This document shows, one piece after another, positions 4,945-40,973 of a stretch of 64,000 nt of DNA (the first letter of the stretch is position 1; each line of letters opens with the position of its first letter). The stretch is from the IMG/VR virus record IMGVR_UViG_3300044646_002092, positions 52,445 through 116,444 of that record; one strand, given 5' to 3'. The notes beneath the pieces are model-generated. The model worked only from the letters and a program-made list of their open reading frames with translations. It did not search any database and was not told the DNA's origin. The position numbers and the translations under genes were made by a program. The DNA comes from a virus.

Positions 4945-5413
4945 ATCGATGCCTCAAGGCGCTAACATTCTCGACGTTGACTTAACTAAGCCTGAGAACT
5001 GCATCTTTGTACCTGTGAACTGTGTAGGGGTGATGGGTAAAGGTTTGGCGCTCGACTTCAAGAAAAAATATCCCGATTTAGTTTGGCAATACAACAATCT
5101 TTGTGAAAAGAATTATCTTAGAGTGGGTTTCCCTGAGTTTATTTCTTTTGATGGCTCATTTTTAAATATTGTCCTTTTCCCAACTAAAAAACATTGGAAG
5201 GACTTATCTCAACTTCATTGGATTAAGCAGGGATTAATAGAATTAGCTACAAGCCCTAACTTAGACTTTCAGCATTGGCGCAAACAAACTCGCAACCTAC
5301 ATATACCTAAACTTGGTTGTGGTCTTGGTGGTCTTAATTGGGCTGATGTACGCCCTTTGATTGAACAGTTTGCAGAAATGATGCCTGAACATGAGGTGTA
5401 TTTATATGAATAG
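4937..5413 (+). CDS. Macrodomain ADP-ribosylhydrolase (DarG/TARG1/Poa1p-like)
   Basis: PVNCVGVMGKGLALDFKKKYP, FPTKKHW and IPKLGCGLGGLNWADV are the diagnostic motifs of this macrodomain subfamily. Confidence 0.9.
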   Translation: MLKSMPQGANILDVDLTKPENCIFVPVNCVGVMGKGLALDFKKKYPDLVWQYNNLCEKNYLRVGFPEFISFDGSFLNIVLFPTKKHWKDLSQLHWIKQGLIELATSPNLDFQHWRKQTRNLHIPKLGCGLGGLNWADVRPLIEQFAEMMPEHEVYLYE

Positions 5414-5416
5414 AAT

Positions 5417-5866
5417 ATGTTAGGAAGTTTACCAACTGAACCAGAAGAAGTTAAGTTAGCCATCATTGATGATGAACTTAATAAACTTTATATTGATACT
5501 CAACATCTATTACAGAAATACAGTTCTCTTGTTTCTGAAAATACCCCACTCCTAATCAACCAAATTAAAAAAGCTCTCAAAGATTTAGACTTTATTTTTG
5601 AAAATCTGAGTCTCGAAAGTGAGGATTGGAAAGTAAGTTCCTGTAAGCGGGAGTACAAATACTGGTACAAACAATTTACACATTTCGATGAGCTACTTAT
5701 TCCCGAAGTTATTGAAAAATATCTTGAAGAGGAGTTGGAAAAAGAAAGGCAAAGAGAATTAGAACGTGAAAAACGTTACCAACTACAAAAAGAAGAGGTT
5801 GAAAAAGCAAAATTAAATAATAGATGGATTGACGAAATGCGCCGTACCCACTACAATACTTTTTAG
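5417..5866 (+). CDS. Hypothetical protein
   Basis: ORF in the operon; charged helical C-terminus. Confidence 0.65.
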   Translation: MLGSLPTEPEEVKLAIIDDELNKLYIDTQHLLQKYSSLVSENTPLLINQIKKALKDLDFIFENLSLESEDWKVSSCKREYKYWYKQFTHFDELLIPEVIEKYLEEELEKERQRELEREKRYQLQKEEVEKAKLNNRWIDEMRRTHYNTF

Positions 5867-5887
5867 TAATACTTAAGGAGCAAAAAG

Positions 5888-6169
5888 ATGTCACGCACCA
5901 AGAAGCACAGAGACTTGTTTTTTCTTCAGTTTCTTCACAAACTTATCAAGTCCATCGGTAGCCCTTTTACCCATCCTCGCGCATCTCGTTGGGCTAAAGT
6001 ACGTAGCAGAGTCAGCAGACAGTATGGAGGCTCTAACTGGGGCGATAATCAGCGTGTAGATACCAAATACAACTTCACACCCAAACATCGTGCAATGAAG
6101 CGTGCAGCCCGTCGAGAAGCTTTGGAGCAAGCACAGCAACAACTTGAAGAATACGAATATGGAGACTAA
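5888..6169 (+). CDS. Basic hypothetical protein
   Basis: AAGGAG RBS upstream. Confidence 0.65.
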   Translation: MSRTKKHRDLFFLQFLHKLIKSIGSPFTHPRASRWAKVRSRVSRQYGGSNWGDNQRVDTKYNFTPKHRAMKRAARREALEQAQQQLEEYEYGD

Positions 6170-6464
6170 CCTGCGTTGGCAAGATAATGGACAATTTTCT
6201 TACGCTTGGTTCGGTATTACTAAGCTCAGCGTCGAGTATGAAGGGTCTATGCATCCAAGAGGCTCAGATTTACCTACTGGCTACCGAGTAAGCGTAGAAG
6301 GTTACAAAAAACGCGAACTCAAGCATCTTTTCTCTAAGCGAGACAATGCAAAAATTGCTGCTGAACGTCTACTCTGGAAAATTGTAAACGAAATGCACCA
6401 AGACCTATCTCAATATTCTTGGGATACGCACAACAAAGAAGAAGTTAAATGGGTGGTGAGATGA
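6159..6464 (+). CDS. Hypothetical protein
   Basis: Probable start ATG 6159 (METNLRWQ), overlapping the previous gene's end. Confidence 0.6.
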   Translation: METNLRWQDNGQFSYAWFGITKLSVEYEGSMHPRGSDLPTGYRVSVEGYKKRELKHLFSKRDNAKIAAERLLWKIVNEMHQDLSQYSWDTHNKEEVKWVVR

Positions 6465-6703
6465 TTAAATTACCGCCAAGGTTCAAAATTTTCCACAATG
6501 TTAGCGAGGACTATTACTTCATCAAAGAACGATTCTGTTTCTTTTGGTATATGACAGAAAGGGATATTATTGCTTACGATGGTTCTACAGTAATAACTCG
6601 TTACGAGAGTGTTGAAGCTGCCGAAACTGTAATCGACCAATGGCTCCGTAATAAAAAACAATCCAAAACACCTGATGAAATCAAACTGGTAAAAGAACTA
6701 TGA
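6461..6703 (+). CDS. Hypothetical protein
   Basis: ATGA-type overlaps at both ends. Confidence 0.6.
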   Translation: MIKLPPRFKIFHNVSEDYYFIKERFCFFWYMTERDIIAYDGSTVITRYESVEAAETVIDQWLRNKKQSKTPDEIKLVKEL

Positions 6704-7830
6704 CCAACGCAGTCGAAATCGTAACAATCTCTCGCATCATCCCTATCTATAAAAATGGCGAAGAAGCCTCATCAATCCAAGTCGTTAACTTCAATTTTGC
6801 CAATGGCGATGAATGTGGTTATAACGTTGTCTCACAAAAAGGCATCTATCAAGTAGGCTAAAAGGCTGTATACATCCAACCTGACTACTGCTTACCTGAT
6901 TCTTCTTTGTTCACAAGCTTCACAGCCCCAAACGGCGACCCCAACAAATCCAGACTTGGACGCAACAATCGCATTCGGGCGCTCAAGTTCAATTTCAGCT
7001 TTGAGAATAGTAGCGACCCAATCTATTCCGTCGGCATCTTACTGAATACAAACGAGCTGCCTATCGAGTTACTTGCGGCTGAAGACCTCGCAGCAGCTTT
7101 GGGCATCACTAAGTACGAAGAACCAGAGAAAGGCGCTACAGGTCAAACCAGAGGCACACTGCCTTCTTTTTTGTACTCTACTGATGAAGAAAATTGTGCG
7201 AATCTCAAATCCCACATCAATCGTGTTCTTGAAAGTGGGGCAGAAGTTGCTTACACTATTAAAGTTGACGGAAGCTCATTCACTGAGTATTTCAAGAAAG
7301 ATGCTGAAGGCAATTGGTACACAGGTATTTGCTCTCGCTCGTTAGAGAAGAAAATTACTGATGACACTGCTGATAGTTGGGTCAAACTGGCTAAGTCTTC
7401 TGGATTGTACGAGCGTGGCATGGAATATTGCAAGAAGCACAACGTCGAGTTGGCGTTTCGGGGAGAAATCTATGGTCAGGGCTTGAAAGGTAGCGGCAAT
7501 AAGCTGAATCCAGATGCTAATAAGAAGCAAGGACTAATTCTTTTCGGTATCGATAACTTATCAAGTGGTTTTGCTACTCGAATCCATTATGGTCAGCCTC
7601 ACAATCTTGAACTTGTTTGCGACGAACTGCAACTCCAATATACTCCTTTAGTAAGGTTTTTCTCCCAATTTCGCCCCAAAAATTACGACGAACTAATCTC
7701 GTTTGCTTCTGATGTTTTTAAAAGAGAAAAAGAAGCTGGTCGAGTCGTTGAGGGTATTGTCGTTCGCACACTTTACTCAAACGATTTGTCGGTCAAGGTC
7801 ATGAACCCATACTACGACAGCAAAAAATAA
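6700..7830 (+). pseudogene. RNA ligase (Rnl2/DRB0094-like) interrupted by an in-frame TAA at 6859-6861
   Basis: ATG 6700 is in frame with track ORF 6907..7830; YNVVSQKGIYQVG*KAVYIQPDYCLP matches the family's N-terminal domain; motif I (TIKVDGSS), RGEIYG, EGIVVR and a C-terminal K are present. Confidence 0.8.
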
Positions 7831-7854
7831 TACTAGATGTACTTCGCTAGGTAG

Positions 7855-7884
7855 AGGACAAAAAACTATACTTTTGCATATAAT
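7855..7884 (+). promoter_or_regulatory. Sigma70-like promoter upstream of the omegaRNA guide
   Basis: TATAAT at 7879-7884, with AGGACA 18 nt upstream. Confidence 0.55.
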
Positions 7885-7902
7885 AAAGAAATGAACCCTG
7901 AG

Positions 7903-8117
7903 TTTCACTAACCCTACTTTTTAAAATAGGGATTAACCTAATCAGTTAGGTTAACGTAAGAAGCGAATAGCTCATTGAGACTTGATTTGGTACAGACTTC
8001 CGAATGCTTCTCTAGTTCGGATTATCTCTAAACCTGATTGTTCAGGTGTTGGGTAAAGCCAAGACATCTTAATCAAGTTGAGCGAGGAGACTTAAACAAT
8101 TTTGGGTTATACCAACA
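7903..8117 (+). ncRNA. omegaRNA (HEARO-type) scaffold of IsrB
   Basis: Directly upstream of isrB; opening hairpin (ACCCTACTTT/AAAATAGGGAT), ACTTCCGAATGCTTCTCTAGTTCGGA hairpin and GCGAGGAGAC segment typical of HEARO/omegaRNAs; boundaries approximate. Confidence 0.8.
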
Positions 8118-9215
8118 ATGCGTATTCCAGTAGTAGATACAAATCATCAACCCTTAATGCCTACTACACCCGCGAGAGCTAGAAAGTGGATTGAATCTGG
8201 CAAAGCGGTAAAACGTTGGTCAGATTGTGGTCAGTTCTACGTTCAGCTACAAGTAGAGCCATCTGGAAAAGAAAAGCAAGCTATTGTCATCGGGCTTGAT
8301 TCAGGCAAGAAATATTCAGGTATAGGTGTGCAATCTGCAAAATTCACTTTATACTCAACCCATTTAAAATTACCATTTCAGATGGTGAGGAATCGGATGG
8401 AACTAAGAGGGTTATTGCGAAGAAGTCGTCGGGGTCGCAGAATTAATCGCAAGGTAAAGTTCTCAAAACGCGCTCATAGACAATTAAGGTTCTCGAACCG
8501 CAGGAAAACTAAACTAGCCCCGTCAATCCGTTCTAATCGGCAACTAGAACTTCGTATTATATCCGAATTGTGTAAGATTTTTCCAATCAGCGCAATTAGA
8601 TATGAATATGTAAAAGCAGACATAGATTTAACTAGTGGACGCAAAAAAGCAAGGTCAGGTAAAAGTTTTTCTCCTGTTATGGTCGGTCAGAAATGGTTGA
8701 TTGAACAGTTAAATAAATTCGCCACCACTACCACTATTTTTGGCTATCAAACATCCCTAGTACGTTCTCACCTCGGTTTGGTAAAAAATAAAAATGATAA
8801 ATCAAAACCTTGCTTTGAGACACACGCTGTTGATGGAGTAGCTATTGCTTGCTCCCATTTTGTAGAGTATAAAAAATACCATAAACAAGGAGAGGATGGA
8901 GCAGATTGGGTTGGTGCAGTCAGTGTTACTAAAGCTTCTTTTTTTGTAATTCGCAGACCATCTTTTTCTCGTCGCCAATTACATTTGATAATACCAATTA
9001 AAGGTGGTGTTAGGCATAAATATGGAGGCTCTACTACCCGACACGGTTTCCGTAAGGGAGATTTAGTAAGCTCCCCTAAAGGTATTGGCTATATTAGTGG
9101 CGATACTGTAAAAGCCGTATCTGTTAGCGATTTCAACTGGAAAAGATTAGGGCAAATAGCCCCCAGTAAAATTAGATTGATACACCGTTCAAATGGGTTA
9201 GTTGTTACTTCCTAA
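8118..9215 (+). CDS. isrB: IsrB RNA-guided nickase (IS200/IS605 OMEGA; RRXRR family)
   Basis: N-terminal PLMP domain (QPLMPTTPARAR), RuvC-I GLDSG, Arg-rich bridge helix (LRRSRRGRR), RuvC-II YEYV, RuvC-III HAVD; no HNH insertion; 365 aa. Confidence 0.88.
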   Translation: MRIPVVDTNHQPLMPTTPARARKWIESGKAVKRWSDCGQFYVQLQVEPSGKEKQAIVIGLDSGKKYSGIGVQSAKFTLYSTHLKLPFQMVRNRMELRGLLRRSRRGRRINRKVKFSKRAHRQLRFSNRRKTKLAPSIRSNRQLELRIISELCKIFPISAIRYEYVKADIDLTSGRKKARSGKSFSPVMVGQKWLIEQLNKFATTTTIFGYQTSLVRSHLGLVKNKNDKSKPCFETHAVDGVAIACSHFVEYKKYHKQGEDGADWVGAVSVTKASFFVIRRPSFSRRQLHLIIPIKGGVRHKYGGSTTRHGFRKGDLVSSPKGIGYISGDTVKAVSVSDFNWKRLGQIAPSKIRLIHRSNGLVVTS

Positions 9216-9239
9216 GTTAATACGACAGTAAGAAATAAT

Positions 9240-9500
9240 ATGAGTAAAACACTGCAACTGAAATGGGAGTACTCTTCTGCCAACCTGCCTAACGGAGAAA
9301 TTATGGCTCGATTCGGGCTACTCAAGGCTGCTGTTGATGGTACTCATAGTACTATGAGTTACCCTGACAGATTCACTTCAATAAATGCTGCACAGTTAAA
9401 AGCTGAAGATATGCTTTTCCGCCATTTGAAAGAGCTATCAGTAGGTATTGATGCTCTTGACGTAGATGAGGCTGTTGAAACAAACAAACTCGATAACTAA
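9240..9500 (+). CDS. Hypothetical protein
   Basis: 86-aa ORF directly after isrB. Confidence 0.6.
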   Translation: MSKTLQLKWEYSSANLPNGEIMARFGLLKAAVDGTHSTMSYPDRFTSINAAQLKAEDMLFRHLKELSVGIDALDVDEAVETNKLDN

Positions 9501-9947
9501 AAAATTACTGGTGAAAGTAGGGCTAGAAAGTGCCCCAAAACGAAAGCGTGAGTCCCACCCCGTAATCGTCCAGCTACCACTATTTCTATCTAAAAGCAAG
9601 CTACCAGCACCATTTCTCAGCGTCGTCTGTAGATTAATGGTGCTGTTTTGTGTAAATACCACTCGAACCTGCTCGACGGAAGTGAAGTCAGCTATAGTTG
9701 TTCCTGAAGTCGTTGTAATACTCGTAATTGTGTTTAATTTATTTGCAGTATTATTTGACCTGAACCATCGCCCAGACCCCGCAGTGGGAGCAAATATCTG
9801 ACCTGAAACAGTTGCATCTGAAGCTGTTGCATCGTATATTAGCCAAGACTTGAGTTCAATGCAGACAACTGCAAAACCTTGTGGAAGTGCGCTGACATCG
9901 AGATTGAGAACTTCAGTAAGTGTAGAAAAAGAGATAGGATGTGCCAT
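9438..9947 (-). CDS. Virion protein with a tailspike-type N-terminal adaptor module
   Basis: S-x-x-E-x-x-x-L...W-x-x-YD...PTAGSGRW module shared with other fibre proteins in the window. Confidence 0.6.
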   Translation of the reverse strand: MAHPISFSTLTEVLNLDVSALPQGFAVVCIELKSWLIYDATASDATVSGQIFAPTAGSGRWFRSNNTANKLNTITSITTTSGTTIADFTSVEQVRVVFTQNSTINLQTTLRNGAGSLLLDRNSGSWTITGWDSRFRFGALSSPTFTSNFLVIEFVCFNSLIYVKSINTY

Positions 9948-9951
9948 CTAA

Positions 9952-12144
9952 CTATTGACCATAAAAAACATCAGGAATGTAGTTGCCAGTATACCGCGCA
10001 GACTTAGTGACTCGTAGCTGTGAAATCTCAATCCAACTTCTACTTCTAAACAAAGAGGTGTTTATAGTGGCTATAGAAGAATCTTGACTGTACAACCTCT
10101 TGATACTAAATTCAGACGCTGACGAGGCTATATTCATCGCTTCGCTTGTTGTTGCAGTTGCTTCGAGTTCGCCATTCAAGAATAGAGAACAGCTTGTACC
10201 AAATTTCACAAAAGATACATCAACTACTGTGCTATCTGGAATATCAGTTACACCATCCAAAGTGAAGCTACCAAAAGTGACACGAAGCTTGAGGTCATAG
10301 ATGCCCCACGTAAAACCCCCCTCAACATCGATAATAGCCCCACGAGTATTGCCAGATGGATTAAATATCTTGGCTTCAAGTGTTACATCGCCAGTTATCT
10401 CCAAGCTGCTATCGGTATACCCAATATGAGAGTACTTATTGAGCCGTCCTGACGCGATGAGTGGTTGTACTGTAGTATTTGACGTGAAACTTCTTGTGAG
10501 GCTGTACTGAGCAAAATCTGCCTCACCTACATTAAATTTGAGAAGTAGTACTGTGTTCGCCGTTGCGGTGTCTTTAGGCGGAACGTCATTAGCAGAAAAG
10601 GGAATACTAGCTGCTGTATTAATGGTAAGTTGACGCAAATATCCTTGCCAACTTTGGGAAGTCCATGCAGCAGTACCTACCGAGTTTTTCAAGCTACCTA
10701 TGCACAGTGGCTCAGTTGAATTATTGTTGAAGTTGTTAGCTGCTTTGAGGTGAGCGCTTAAGACTCCATCGATAAATATTTTGTAGACTCGCCCGATTCG
10801 ATTAATGACAACGCTATGCTCGAAGAGGTCGTCTGGTAAGGCACAAGACAGCACGTTAGACCCAAAGGCAGCAAACAAGGTACTATCTGCCGCTACACCC
10901 ACATAAAAGCCTATACTAGATGCTTTGTGGCTACCCACAATACAACCATACTCGCCTACGCTCGTTTTGGCAGAAAAGAAGGAAATAGTGAAGTCAGTTT
11001 CGTTGAGGTCGAATGCCGATGTTTTTGTCGCCTCAAGTCTGCCCCCTGAGAGTAATAGACGTGCCTTACTGATGGTTGGAGTGCCGACTGTATTGCCGAT
11101 TGTTGAAATGCCAGCGCCAGTATATGCAGTTGTTGATGATGCAAATGCCAGATACAACGCTTCGCTGAAAGGAGCCTCCCACCCTATTTTTTCTGCATAA
11201 GCGACAGCGCCAGTTTTGTCCACATTGTCGCTGTAATCAATGTTCGCGTAAAGTTTGTTGACGTACTGCAATTCAAGTACTTGTTTGCCAAAATATGCAG
11301 TGAGAAGTGTTGCTTGGCTGTATTGCTTAGGGAGCGCGAAGATGTCAGTGAAATTCTTGATTATGTGACCGTTTGGAATCAGCTCGATGAAGTATTTCGT
11401 ATACTTGCCAGCATTGAGGATTGTGAGCGTTGTATTAGTCGCTAGAGTGATGCTGATGTATTGGGTCGCGCCAGCAAGGTCAAGCGAGTATGTGTCGGTA
11501 GAAATAGTAATTGAGGTCAGGTCGTATGCGTCGATTTGATTTTGAGGTATAGGCTCCCAAGTAGCAGGAGTCACAATTAACGTAGCTTCACATTTTAGTT
11601 CTAACTCTCGGATACTGATTGTTGTCTGAGAACCCCGATAAAATACGAAAAGATAGGTCGTCGAAGGTGAAAACTCTTCAGTTATAAAATATTCTGTAGT
11701 TGCATAATTACTTACTATAAACGTACCTACTAAGCTAGTCGGCTCTACGGCGCTGCCCCTATAAACATCCACTTGTTCTGGTTTATTGAAGTTGCCATTG
11801 AATTGACCGTTAGTAAGTAAAAAGCTTGTTAATAATTTAGCTTCAGGAAATGTTGTGATTACTCTAAAAACATTTGATGTATATGGCATACACGCTTCAC
11901 CAGTACCGTCATTAAGTTTATCCAAAGCATAACTTGCATTAAAGTAAGAATAGCTTTCTGGTGTTGATGCTGTATAGGGAATGACTTGAGGTACACCGAT
12001 TTCGGAAGTCTCAGGAATATACACTTGCCAACACTTGCGGTCAAAGTTGATTAGCGGTGTATTTGCAGGTACTAGCGACAAATCGAGAGCTGAAAGTTCG
12101 CTGTCGCTATTAATCGTGTAGCCGTTGCGGGGAGGTCTGCTCAT
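9952..12144 (-). CDS. Tail fibre or receptor-binding protein with LamG/ConA-like domains
   Basis: DFTISFF...HSVVINRIGRVYKIFIDG and ISQLRVTKSARYTGNY LamG signatures; discoidin-like segment. Confidence 0.75.
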   Translation of the reverse strand: MSRPPRNGYTINSDSELSALDLSLVPANTPLINFDRKCWQVYIPETSEIGVPQVIPYTASTPESYSYFNASYALDKLNDGTGEACMPYTSNVFRVITTFPEAKLLTSFLLTNGQFNGNFNKPEQVDVYRGSAVEPTSLVGTFIVSNYATTEYFITEEFSPSTTYLFVFYRGSQTTISIRELELKCEATLIVTPATWEPIPQNQIDAYDLTSITISTDTYSLDLAGATQYISITLATNTTLTILNAGKYTKYFIELIPNGHIIKNFTDIFALPKQYSQATLLTAYFGKQVLELQYVNKLYANIDYSDNVDKTGAVAYAEKIGWEAPFSEALYLAFASSTTAYTGAGISTIGNTVGTPTISKARLLLSGGRLEATKTSAFDLNETDFTISFFSAKTSVGEYGCIVGSHKASSIGFYVGVAADSTLFAAFGSNVLSCALPDDLFEHSVVINRIGRVYKIFIDGVLSAHLKAANNFNNNSTEPLCIGSLKNSVGTAAWTSQSWQGYLRQLTINTAASIPFSANDVPPKDTATANTVLLLKFNVGEADFAQYSLTRSFTSNTTVQPLIASGRLNKYSHIGYTDSSLEITGDVTLEAKIFNPSGNTRGAIIDVEGGFTWGIYDLKLRVTFGSFTLDGVTDIPDSTVVDVSFVKFGTSCSLFLNGELEATATTSEAMNIASSASEFSIKRLYSQDSSIATINTSLFRSRSWIEISQLRVTKSARYTGNYIPDVFYGQ

Positions 12145-12222
12145 TTCATTATTATACCTCTAGAGGGATTCGCAAAAAAGAGGTTGCAGGTAATATTGAG
12201 TTGTTAATTACGAGCAAAGCCA

Positions 12223-12459
12223 ATGAATACTAGACACTTATATACATTTCAAGATGGTAGGGTTCTTGTACTTGAGCATATTGTAGCTATAGGTAGCATT
12301 TACCCCTCGCGAGATGAGGGTATGTTTTTTCAAGTGGATATGCTTGGTGATGTTTGCTATTGCTACCCAGATGTTGAGTTTGAAAAGACTCGCTCAGCAT
12401 TGCAAAACTACAAAACTACCGAACGCGCCGAACTTATTAAAGCATTACGTGCAATTTGA
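12223..12459 (+). CDS. Hypothetical protein
   Basis: First gene of a plus-strand island. Confidence 0.6.
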   Translation: MNTRHLYTFQDGRVLVLEHIVAIGSIYPSRDEGMFFQVDMLGDVCYCYPDVEFEKTRSALQNYKTTERAELIKALRAI

Positions 12460-12701
12460 TGCTAAGAATTGAAAACACTCAAGCTGAGACTAGTTTTGGA
12501 TTCGATTCTACATTAATCGAACTATTCATTAATTTTTTTACTTTATTTCAGATAGAGTTTTATTTTTATCCACTTATTGAATGGGGATGGAGATGGGAAC
12601 ACTCAGTAGAGAATTTATCAAATACTCAGACAGACTTCATTTCTTCGTATATCCTGCCCACACTTGATGTAAAAATAAGAGTTAGGTACATATTAAGATG
12701 A
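12456..12701 (+). CDS. Hypothetical protein
   Basis: Overlapping stop/start junctions on both sides. Confidence 0.5.
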   Translation: MMLRIENTQAETSFGFDSTLIELFINFFTLFQIEFYFYPLIEWGWRWEHSVENLSNTQTDFISSYILPTLDVKIRVRYILR

Positions 12702-40296: not shown

Positions 40297-40371
40297 GGCG
40301 GGATGGAGCAGTCTGGTTAGCTTGCGAGGCTCATAACCTTGAGGTCGATAGTTCAAATCTATCTCCCGCCA
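40297..40371 (+). tRNA. tRNA-Met (CAT)
   Basis: Acceptor stem GGCGGGA/TCCCGCC, anticodon loop CT-CAT-AA, T-loop TTCAAAT. Confidence 0.9.
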
Positions 40372-40377
40372 TAACAC

Positions 40378-40592
40378 CCTTCCGAGTGTCTCGGATTGCT
40401 TAGTGAAAGTGGCAGTTTCAACACTGCGCTTAGCCGTATAAAGGCTAGGCTCCTACAGGTGGTCATGGAAACTAACACTGGTGTTTACGATAAGAGCTAC
40501 ATTACGTGAGTATGTAGAGTTGGGGCTGGTAATACTACAGGCTGTCAGTGGTTTCAAGAACGGTTGTAACACAGTTGAGAGCTGACCTCTTA
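40378..40592 (+). ncRNA. Unassigned multi-helix structured RNA
   Basis: At least six readable helices and no ORF; details in findings. Confidence 0.6.
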
Positions 40593-40600
40593 TTTAACTT

Positions 40601-40671
40601 GCGGTTATGGTATAAAGGAATTATTCTTGGCTTCCACCCAAGAGATGAGATATCGTAATTCTCTAACCGCT
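40601..40671 (+). tRNA. tRNA-Gly (TCC), atypical T-loop
   Basis: GCGGTTA/TAACCGC acceptor; CTTGG-CT-TCC-AC-CCAAG. Confidence 0.8.
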
Positions 40672-40674
40672 TAA

Positions 40675-40747
40675 TCCTCTATAGCTCAGTTGGTAGAGCG
40701 TCGCGCTGTTAACGCGAATGTCCTTAGTTCGAGTCTAAGTGGAGGAG
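40675..40747 (+). tRNA. tRNA-Asn (GTT)
   Basis: TCCTCTA/TGGAGGA acceptor; TCGCG-CT-GTT-AA-CGCGA; canonical D and T arms. Confidence 0.92.
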
Positions 40748-40750
40748 TTT

Positions 40751-40821
40751 GGGTCATTAGCTCATGGGTAGAGCATCTGGCTTTTAACCAGACCAAGACG
40801 ATTCGAGCGCGTCATGACCCT
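40751..40821 (+). tRNA. tRNA-Lys (TTT), atypical T-arm
   Basis: GGGTCAT/ATGACCC acceptor; TCTGG-CT-TTT-AA-CCAGA. Confidence 0.85.
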
Positions 40822-40898
40822 TTGTGATTAGCTCAGTGGATTAGAGCATTCCCCTTCTAAGGGAAGAGTCGTTGGTTCGAGTCCAACATCACAAGCCA
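40822..40898 (+). tRNA. tRNA-Arg (TCT) with encoded CCA
   Basis: TTGTGAT/ATCACAA acceptor; TTCCC-CT-TCT-AA-GGGAA. Confidence 0.92.
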
Positions 40899-40901
40899 AA
40901 T

Positions 40902-40973
40902 GGCTCTCTAGCATAATGGTATTGCAGCTCTCCTGTAAAGAGCAGATTGTCAGTTCGACTCTGACGGGAGCCT
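40902..40973 (+). tRNA. tRNA-Thr (TGT)?, with C33 in place of U33
   Basis: GGCTCTC/GGGAGCC acceptor; the perfect stem GCTCT/AGAGC encloses CC-TGT-AA. Confidence 0.65.

Follow-up and report, generated by a model that had tools for sequence, protein, structure and literature searches.

The window, by which we mean the whole 64,000-nt stretch of viral DNA analysed here, carries an IsrB-omegaRNA cassette between two conserved phage genes. Our best explanation, in which we place about even confidence, is that it derives from a cyanobacterial ISC1-type (IS200/IS605-family) IsrB-omegaRNA element and is now a fixed cassette in a freshwater Pseudanabaena-type cyanophage. The same explanation takes it to encode a TnpA-independent, RNA-guided homing nickase, which would move between co-infecting phages; as its guide is aimed at the end of an RNA ligase gene in cassette-free phages, it probably spreads by homing. 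The preliminary description had reported an intact, transposase-less IsrB-omegaRNA locus in a phage, and this was borne out, with nickase and scaffold full and no PF01797 domain in the record; all the elements that it listed were found at the coordinates given. The core of the cassette consists of the following features:

7855-7884, plus strand: sigma-70-like promoter, AGGACA-18 nt-TATAAT, with 10/12 consensus matches
7891-7903, plus strand: guide segment ATGAACCCTGAGT, 13 nt, or 14 if it begins at 7890, adjoining the scaffold on its 5' side
7904-8117, plus strand: omegaRNA scaffold, HEARO-type (Rfam HEARO, covariation alignment)
8118-9215, plus strand: IsrB, 365 aa, HNH-less, with RuvC residues D61/E163/H236/D239 and TAM-reading residues R343/Q346

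Judged from its sequence, the ORF at 8118-9215 is a full-length, HNH-less IsrB and a predicted nickase. A Pfam search placed the N-terminal RRXRR domain (PF14239) on residues 3-176 (E 6e-47) and found no HNH domain; the NCBIfam model guided_IscB covers the N-terminal half only, and DtIsrB (PDB 8DMB) matches from end to end (E 1.5e-44), with the PLMP motif visible in the alignment to 8DMB. The split-RuvC residues D61, E163, H236 and D239 are unchanged in 127 of 127 aligned family members, the window protein included, and are also kept in 25 lineage members, in agreement with the earlier observation that all RuvC catalytic motifs are present. The WKRLGQ motif carries R343 and Q346, which correspond to R323 and Q326 in the TAM-interacting domain of DtIsrB. 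With its catalytic residues intact, the window IsrB is therefore not a dead binder.

The omegaRNA adjoins IsrB upstream on the same strand and has a variable 5' guide. Alignment of 19 homologous scaffolds revealed compensatory changes in 43 of 53 predicted pairs, and the window omegaRNA keeps every helix of this alignment, so that the scaffold can be called complete, as it had been, though its Rfam score is sub-threshold. The proposed check with the HEARO model gave a match at 7904-8097 (E 1.3e-5), but its 37 bits lie below the gathering score of 83; the model also matches upstream of a paralogous IsrB in the same genome and of Ma-LMM01 gp171. No further omegaRNA copies were found in the genome with nhmmer. 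The boundary between scaffold and guide was set by the alignment of the 19 omegaRNAs, the sequence upstream of the scaffold not being conserved. The TATAAT box noted earlier at 7879 is present and forms part of the region's best promoter-like site, the number of such sites not being above that in shuffles. This predicted promoter (a consensus match only) would start transcription near 7890-7892.

The right end of the cassette differs from that of its relatives:

9216-9239, plus strand: 24-nt spacer, which replaces the terminal hairpin and T-run of relatives
9240-9243, plus strand: ATGA, which marks the ancestral end of the element as the family TAM motif and also serves as start codon for the gene that follows

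About 55-60 nt past the IsrB stop, 28 distinct relatives have a conserved hairpin, a T-run and ATGA(A), and canonical family ends abut ATGA in 28/28. The window IsrB is followed only by the 24-nt spacer, in which neither a hairpin nor a terminator-like hairpin was found, so the right-end hairpin is missing as first described. GTAAG in the spacer resembles the family GTAAAG, a likeness that fits a deletion of the hairpin. The absence of tnpA from the window extends to the whole 116,444-bp record (80% complete), where no Y1 transposase TnpA (PF01797) was detected. As the record contains no TnpA and the terminal hairpin recognised by TnpA is lost, ordinary transposition is excluded; a host TnpA may act in trans. 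By comparison across the family, ATGA is the TAM of these IsrBs. Residues R323 and Q326 of DtIsrB read G3 and A4 of its NTGA TAM (PMC9581776) and the R/Q pair is kept here, the insertion of a host IsrB element into cyanophage Mic1 is reported to lie at an ATGA (PMC11237433), and the GstIscB TAM, TTCAT, is the reverse complement of ATGAA. The ATGA/NTGA-type TAM put forward beforehand is thus well founded.

The lost hairpin would also fit a decaying relic, acquired from a host, deprived of its end and now neutral cargo, whose guide would be a fossil of the original flank and would no longer direct anything useful. Such decay would agree with the guide mismatching all sampled targets, and near-identical copies (99% or more) exist, which suggest a young insertion in the lineage. 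We nevertheless regard it as rather doubtful. Neither of the two IsrB ORFs in the genome is truncated or has lost a catalytic or TAM residue, all omegaRNA helices are kept and a consensus promoter lies at the right distance from the guide. Furthermore, same-lineage IsrBs with 80-84% identity are mostly intact and full-length with all catalytic residues, a few cluster members being shorter; IMG/VR queried with one of them (P0003) gave one extra distant locus only.

The cassette lies among three genes:

6907-7830, plus strand: RNA ligase gene, conserved left neighbour (Pfam RNA_ligase E 2e-8; TIGR02306 E 6e-16)
9240-9500, plus strand: orphan gene, 86 aa, which travels with IsrB and overlaps the convergent gene with its last 63 nt
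9438-9947, minus strand: convergent conserved gene, 169 aa, right neighbour, with its last ~97 nt (9438-9534) within a diverged block

The RNA ligase gene is syntenic in Pam2 and 10 IMG/VR relatives. The ATGA at 9240-9243 had been taken as the start of the next gene, and this gene is real, conserved and small: its codon-usage log-odds is 0.221, against an in-frame gene mean of 0.228, and it has homologues with 80-98% identity, among which 102-aa forms contain a 16-aa internal segment missing in the window. The stretch 9404-9437 was considered as a decayed remnant of the ligase end and dropped, the real and conserved 86-aa ORF spanning it.

One might instead suppose that a host TnpA placed a host-derived IsrB element at the ATGA with which the 86-aa gene, a moron, begins, a short way past the promoter belonging to that gene. 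The guide would then be the 5' UTR of the moron, its likeness to the ligase chance or the by-product of an old microduplication, and the nickase would act on the IS-free moron allele (joint 7903|9240), the hairpin having been lost later. The 86-aa ORF does begin with ATGA, the ATGA after the element starts the next ORF in L002, L005, L006 and L007, the promoter is located exactly as a moron promoter would be, and other small cargo occupies the interval from the ligase to the convergent gene in Pam2, L009 and L013. This course of events would lead one to expect ...CCCTGAGT|ATGAGT at the start of an IsrB-free 86-aa gene, yet searches of INPHARED, IMG/VR and GTDB genomes for the 86-aa gene returned nothing, and so no IS-free allele either. 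Given also the guide comparisons presented below for both cassettes of the genome, we consider landing on the moron start codon unlikely.

The guide of the cassette is related in sequence to the 3' end of the ligase gene next to it, which itself carries a similar site:

7801-7817, plus strand: resident guide-like site ATGAACCCATACT followed by ACGA, TAM-free and mismatched to the guide at four positions

The guide ATGAACCCTGAGT reads as the RNA-ligase codons M-N-P-E, and guide plus TAM, ATGAACCCTGAGT|ATGA, corresponds to the last ligase codons M-N-P-E-Y-D of cassette-free relatives, in which the site reads ATGAAYCCNGAAT followed by ATGA, about 15 nt ahead of the ligase stop. Ligase alleles of the E-Y type (Pam2, L008, L009 and L012) match the guide at 10-11 of 13 positions, have ATGA next in 4/4 and differ from the guide at third codon positions only; a fifth allele, that of L013, is of the window's Y-Y type, with 9/13 matches and ACGA. 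The TAM-bearing site of the relatives lies ~15-30 nt from the insertion point, and the resident copy is TAM-free. Among 20,000 random 13-mers drawn from the phage's own genome, 31 matched the ligase region equally well and none did so when the TAM was required, for a homology that spans 13-17 nt only and was recognised post hoc. Joining the flanks at 7903 and 9240 in silico yields a sequence that is contiguous to the ligase 3' end of relatives at 15/17 positions, an alignment equalled by 5 of 2,000 shuffles. The pre-insertion joint 7903|9240 proposed earlier is reflected in the alignment of the joined flanks, but no allele with this joint was found. Insertion at the moron start codon would make it a matter of chance that both guide and joint match the ligase end, with a TAM and with mismatches at wobble positions alone, and such a coincidence is unlikely.

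Every sampled cassette-free ligase allele has 2-3 mismatches to the 13-nt guide, including a common one 2 nt from the TAM, and no perfect ligase target with context was found in a scan of IMG/VR. The exact 14-nt guide has at least 118 matches in IMG/VR, which are at chance level or fall in an unrelated protein motif, with 0 in ligase genes. These searches also bear on co-option of the cassette, either as an RNA-guided weapon against host or competitor sequences that have nothing to do with its insertion site or for TldR-like transcriptional control. Exaptation of OMEGA nucleases is known, and nothing specific speaks for it here. The sole non-trivial guide match adjoins the cassette itself, the other 14-mer matches being at chance level or in unrelated genes, so that action against a host or competitor target, which the preliminary description had offered as an alternative, finds no support and co-option in either form appears very improbable.

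The cassette-free relatives offer a view of the site without IsrB. Their closest member, L008, delimits a block in the window:

7806-9534, no strand assigned: block diverged from L008, the closest cassette-free relative (genome alignment)

The empty site of both L008 and L012 links the ligase stop (about 7830) with that of the convergent gene (about 9438), and not, as had been anticipated, ~7903 with ~9240; a junction elsewhere in relatives had been named beforehand as grounds for refuting the proposal. Identity between the window and L008 is 100% over 7130-7805 and over 9535-9737. The two first differ at 7806, which is 8 nt ahead of the TAM position and within the published nick window. Block switches occur about every 700 nt all along these mosaic genomes, so that the edges of a block beside the cassette are modest evidence only; L008 has identical flanks but three guide mismatches, so the guide is not obviously the driver of the exchange with L008. 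The window IsrB gene stands between conserved genes and is patchy among close relatives. Five related records are 64-100% complete; three are without IsrB and one has only a distant 450-aa RRXRR protein. Our best reading is still that related phages with element-free alleles would be the targets of the nickase, though not, as first thought, at the 7903|9240 joint. The 58 nt preceding the guide, which separate it from the ligase body and contain the promoter and the recoded gene end, match none of the other sequences compared, and neither does the tail after IsrB.

The same genome carries a second cassette:

G000:C1:28029-29102: paralog IsrB, in a layout that repeats that of the first cassette

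The guide of this cassette shares homology with the 3' end that the upstream gene has in relatives, and this homology to the end of a neighbouring gene is unambiguous, which again argues against landing on a moron start codon. The resident end of the upstream gene is recoded at this locus, and the original end persists as a remnant directly after IsrB. The TAM-reading residues of the paralog are V and K, not R/Q, and its targets are followed by TTGG, TAGG or ATGG. Short direct repeats bound each patch, namely ATGAACCC at 7801 and 7891 and TGTTTT at 1207 and 1268 of L004. We tentatively propose that the cassette is a self-contained homing unit made up of a recoding patch, a promoter, a copy of the target as guide, a nickase and a passenger gene, and that two such units coexist in this phage. 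The patch could, if this somewhat speculative reading holds, recode the 3' end of a neighbouring, essential-looking gene so that TAM and seed match are lost. It is conceivable as well, at a probability that we also put below even, that the two units differ in how they read the TAM, R/Q being used for NTGA and V/K for an NNGG-type motif.

The homing that we favour would proceed as follows. The promoter, 7 nt upstream, would give an omegaRNA whose guide is 13-14 nt long. In co-infected cells, the RNP formed with IsrB would nick cassette-free genomes on the non-target strand, at a point 8-11 nt ahead of the TAM, and replication would turn the nick into a break. Recombinational repair off the cassette-bearing genome would then copy a block comprising the immune ligase end, the promoter, the guide, the omegaRNA, IsrB and the 86-aa gene, while the resident ligase would be protected by four mismatches and the loss of the TAM (ACGA). 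Such a process would amount to RNA-guided intronless homing, or marker exclusion.

Several known systems share parts of this arrangement. DtIsrB from Desulfovirgula thermocuniculi (PDB 8DMB; Hirano et al. 2022, PMC9581776), among the closest known systems together with the cyanobacterial IsrBs that the study tested, has in common with the window IsrB the PLMP/RRXRR N-terminus, the split RuvC without HNH, the R and Q of the TI domain and an upstream omegaRNA on the same strand with a 5' guide. Identity between the two is remote, however, and the window protein is phage-borne and known from sequence, with a scaffold of about 214 nt compared with about 264 nt and a guide of 13-14 nt compared with the 20 nt used for DtIsrB (PMC9581776). 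Closer in sequence are the ISC1 / IS200-IS605-type IsrB elements of cyanobacterial chromosomes, which belong to the same protein clade and share the omegaRNA and the 3' ATGA(A) motif; IsrBs with 72-77% identity occur in Nostoc, Anabaena, Pseudanabaenaceae and Prochlorothrix. Whereas the chromosomal elements keep the terminal hairpin and T-run, the window cassette lacks both, and its guide cannot be read simply as flanking sequence that adjoins the element at a conserved genome site. The host IsrB element in gp49 of Microcystis phage Mic1 (PMC11237433) and Ma-LMM01 gp171, the latter 64% identical to the window IsrB, are likewise cyanophage IsrBs from hosts with an ATGA insertion motif. The Mic1 insertion is reported to consist of the host gene with 207 bp upstream and 59 bp downstream and to disrupt a gene (PMC11237433), whereas the gene neighbouring the window cassette is intact and TAM-free; Ma-LMM01 keeps the terminal hairpin that the window has lost.

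In its position the cassette resembles free-standing homing endonucleases such as SegF, SegB and MobE of T4 and I-PfoP3I of Pf-WMP3, a nicking homing endonuclease known in cyanophage. There too, a nuclease gene of patchy distribution lies between conserved genes and is flanked by short diverged tracts. In these systems the nuclease targets the conserved gene next door in genomes that lack it, substitutions protecting the resident allele, and the same is proposed for the window cassette. Those enzymes recognise their target by protein, whereas the window cassette would use a guide RNA and a 4-nt TAM. The proposed 'transposon non-restorative homing' (PMC13565253) also has a guide RNA direct cleavage of the allele without the element, which recombination then fills by copying. 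It differs in that the window cassette has no possible TnpA excision step and in that self and non-self would be told apart by substitutions in a nearby gene and TAM loss, not by the presence of the element at the cut site.

OMEGA nucleases are understood as helpers of TnpA transposition, which re-install the excised element, and OMEGA homing into co-infecting phages or plasmids has been proposed, so far mainly in theory. Here, both the transposition machinery and the transposon end are missing, but the nickase, its scaffold and the putative promoter are intact. The system would be simple to test, with one phage, two cassettes and known empty alleles, and it would also provide a compact cyanobacterial-type IsrB with a naturally short guide. 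Should the two cassettes indeed be self-contained units, they would be an RNA-guided counterpart of the intronless homing and marker exclusion of T-even phages, and if the nickase works, this would be natural RNA-guided homing between viral genomes, with self-protection by substitutions and TAM loss.

We consider it settled that the window, the 64 kb at the right-hand end of a 116,444-bp IMG/VR virus record (G000, 80% complete) with the Pseudanabaena phages Pam2 and PA-SR01 as phage relatives, contains an intact IsrB and omegaRNA of the cyanobacterial ISC1 type, which is immobilised in a phage and has ATGA as its family TAM. A cluster of six tRNA genes lies elsewhere in the window (40297-40973, + strand).

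Features of the cassette, its flanks and its paralogs (window coordinates unless stated)
6907-7830: RNA-ligase gene, left flank
7891-7903: guide, ATGAACCCTGAGT, in frame M-N-P-E
7904-8097: sub-threshold Rfam HEARO match in the omegaRNA scaffold (37 bits, E 1.3e-5; gathering score 83)
8118-9215, +: IsrB, 365 aa (Pfam RRXRR, E 6e-47)
9240-9500: passenger ORF, 86 aa, orphan, overlapping the 3' end of the convergent gene by 63 nt
9438-9947, -: convergent 169-aa gene, right flank
C1:28029-29102 (contig coordinates, outside the window): paralog IsrB, 49% identical to the window IsrB, with its own omegaRNA
G000:C1:27865-29102 (= L004 1294-2589): paralog cassette, in the 3' end of a gene annotated 'endonuclease'
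L140 4790-6200 (IMGVR_UViG_3300020162_002681): insertion in another phage, adjoining a GGGTATCGTAAACCC hairpin module; empty sites L219, L220 and L222

Over its full length the IsrB protein aligns with the Desulfovirgula thermocuniculi enzyme of known structure (DtIsrB, PDB 8DMB; E 1.5e-44). The NCBI IscB model covers its N-terminal half only, and Pfam finds no HNH match. The preliminary description had reported RuvC catalytic motifs and a full omegaRNA scaffold, and both are confirmed. All four RuvC residues that are invariant among 127 aligned family members (D61, E163, H236 and D239) are present, and the TI-domain residues R343 and Q346 (motif WKRLGQ), equivalent to those with which DtIsrB reads TAM G3 and A4, are kept. 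The protein belongs to a cyanobacterial clade with 2,505 matches at E below 1e-30 and is 72-77% identical to copies in Nostoc, Anabaena, Pseudanabaenaceae and Prochlorothrix. In the RNAalifold consensus of 19 homologous scaffolds, 43 of the 53 predicted pairs show compensatory changes, and every consensus helix is retained in the window. The weak HEARO match is independently supported, because HEARO also matches the equivalent position upstream of the paralog IsrB and of gp171 of Microcystis phage Ma-LMM01. The scaffold starts at 7904 with (T/G)TCA(C/A)(T/C)AAC, and the 15-20 nt 5' of it are unrelated from locus to locus, the pattern expected of a guide. One or two partial extra scaffold starts (GTCACTAACCC...) precede the real scaffold upstream of gp171 (L002 2700-2790) and in locus L160 (579-605), and may have been left behind by earlier or tandem insertions. 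A distant RRXRR-type protein with a 450-aa open frame (G001:C1:114041-114514, L216), 35% identical across the N-terminal 170 residues and perhaps IscB-like, is encoded by a complete, related phage that has neither cassette, the record from which locus L012 derives.

Downstream of IsrB in 28 distinct relatives, which come from viral and metagenome contigs, a conserved G+C hairpin lies ~30-60 nt beyond the stop, with a T-run and then ATGA after it; A is the base after ATGA in 20 of the 28, and from there on the sequence varies. These ends agree with the published layout, in which the transposon RE directly adjoins the iscB omegaRNA and the TAM of GstIscB, TTCAT, is found 5' of LE (ATGAA in gene orientation), and the ATGA agrees with the TAMs of DtIsrB (NTGA) and cyanobacterial IsrBs (NTG; PMC9581776). 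A host IsrB gene is also inserted at ATGA in cyanophage Mic1 (PMC11237433). In the window, the spacer from the stop to the ATGA at 9240 is only 24 nt long; hairpin and T-run are absent from it, and a GTAAG within it aligns with the family GTAAAG immediately before the expected hairpin start. No Y1 transposase is found in the whole G000 record; both absences noted in the preliminary description are confirmed. TnpA-less loci are the rule, tnpA being nearby in ~1.5% of iscB/isrB loci. With neither hairpin and T-run nor transposase, the element cannot be a TnpA substrate, while nuclease and guide are intact; that it is a young decaying relic seems unlikely to us.

The guide points to the neighbouring ligase gene. 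In relatives, the ligase ends in MNPEYD(A/S)KK, and the four with this E-Y allele (Pam2, L008, L009 and L012) carry ATGAAYCCNGAAT at the guide-like site, directly followed by ATGA. The guide matches them at 10-11 of 13 positions, with all mismatches at third codon positions. The resident ligase instead has ATGAACCCATACT here, with ACGA directly after it (protein MNPYYDSKK, a Y-Y allele common to the window and L013). It differs from the guide at four positions, three of which are among the five nearest to the TAM site, and the TAM itself is missing. A short direct repeat, ATGAACCC, flanks the recoded end at 7801 and 7891. 13-mers drawn at random from this phage's genome equalled the summed match to the 100-nt ligase region in 31 of 20,000 cases, and in none of 20,000 when a TAM was required. 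The two flanks of the element, joined in silico (ATGAACCCTGAGT|ATGA), match the L009 and L012 ligase ends contiguously at 15/17 positions, and 5 of 2,000 shuffles did as well. Of the promoter-like sites in this region, the best, AGGACA-18-TATAAT with its end at 7884 (a consensus match only), has a predicted transcription start at ~7890-7892, the exact start of the ligase homology. The guide is quite probably a true homologue of the ligase 3' end; co-option for another target appears highly improbable.

The ligase and the 169-aa gene flank the same slot in Pam2 and ten IMG/VR relatives. Their stop codons almost adjoin in L008 and L012, which have no counterpart of 7831-9437, and other relatives hold unrelated cargo (two small ORFs in Pam2, 345 bp in L013, ~1 kb in the L009 type); the slot is a hot spot. 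The preliminary description had expected the empty junction at 7903|9240, but the L008 and L012 joint lies elsewhere, an outcome that the description itself had listed as a refutation. In essence its model is that the element landed, in the canonical way, on the start codon of the 86-aa moron and thus behind the promoter of that gene; this is possible but rather doubtful. The 86-aa frame is gene-like in codon usage (log-odds per codon 0.221, against 0.228 +/- 0.09 for pieces of real genes read in frame and -0.36 off frame) and has homologues of 80-98% identity, including 102-aa forms relative to which it carries an in-frame 16-codon internal deletion. No IS-free allele was retrieved from INPHARED, IMG/VR or GTDB genomes, and Pfam and NCBIfam searches gave no family. 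For a 102-aa form, and likewise for a 99%-identical IsrB, the records give a contig of 143,050 bp; if this is a single contig, as is probable, both genes would occur together in a second phage genome.

Window and L008 are 100% identical over 7130-7805 and 9535-9737, and 7806-9534 is the sole differing block between them. At the block's edges (7806-7830 and 9438-9534) homology to L008 is present but the sequences have diverged, with 10 of 25 positions differing on the left and ~60% identity on the right. The first difference, 7806, falls within the published DtIsrB nick window (non-target strand, 8-11 nt upstream of the TAM; here 7803-7806), but this is modest evidence only, because in these genomes stretches of identity give way to ~80%-identical ones, and back, roughly every 700 nt. 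Across 5000-12500 of the window, compared with L008, 100% blocks alternate with ~75-90% blocks every few hundred bases, a sign that these phages recombine very frequently. We give about an even chance to a homing process, in which the IsrB RNP would nick the ligase allele of a co-infecting, cassette-free relative, recombination would copy the cassette into the nicked genome, in the manner of free-standing homing endonucleases, and the TAM-less resident ligase end would supply immunity. The main weakness of this homing reading is that no sampled ligase allele is a perfect guide target, including that of the near-identical backbone L008, which differs at three positions.

The paralog cassette also lacks the terminal hairpin. 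Its guide region, TTTAGGCGATACTG, is homologous, with 11-12 of 14 positions matching, to the 3' end of the upstream gene in eight insert-free relatives; in the resident gene the C-terminus is recoded and differs from theirs, and is flanked by a short direct repeat (TGTTTT, L004 1207 and 1268), and the original 3' end, with stop and next gene's start, is kept as a remnant directly after the IsrB stop. In L140, a 76%-identical copy of this paralog type occupies a different site, and three empty sites have the guide of this copy as their flank (ACTCCAAGGTG|TAGG). An 8-nt direct repeat, CCAAGGTG, lies on both sides of the insertion; target duplications are not normally made by IS200/IS605 elements. 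The paralogs have V/T and K in place of the TAM-reading R and Q, and TTGG, TAGG and ATGG next to their targets, which fits the finding that DtIsrB Q326R accepts TTGG and ATGG (PMC9581776).

IsrBs are already documented in phages (Mic1, PMC11237433; Ma-LMM01 gp171), K2IsrB from a viral metagenome is another of viral origin (PMC9581776), and it has been proposed that OMEGA elements home into co-infecting phages or plasmids. Unusual here is the combination: the transposon end is lost, a predicted promoter of the cassette's own would leave the guide very short, that guide is aimed at a conserved neighbour gene of which the resident copy has been recoded and lacks the TAM, and the genome holds two units of this kind that differ in their TAM-reading residues.
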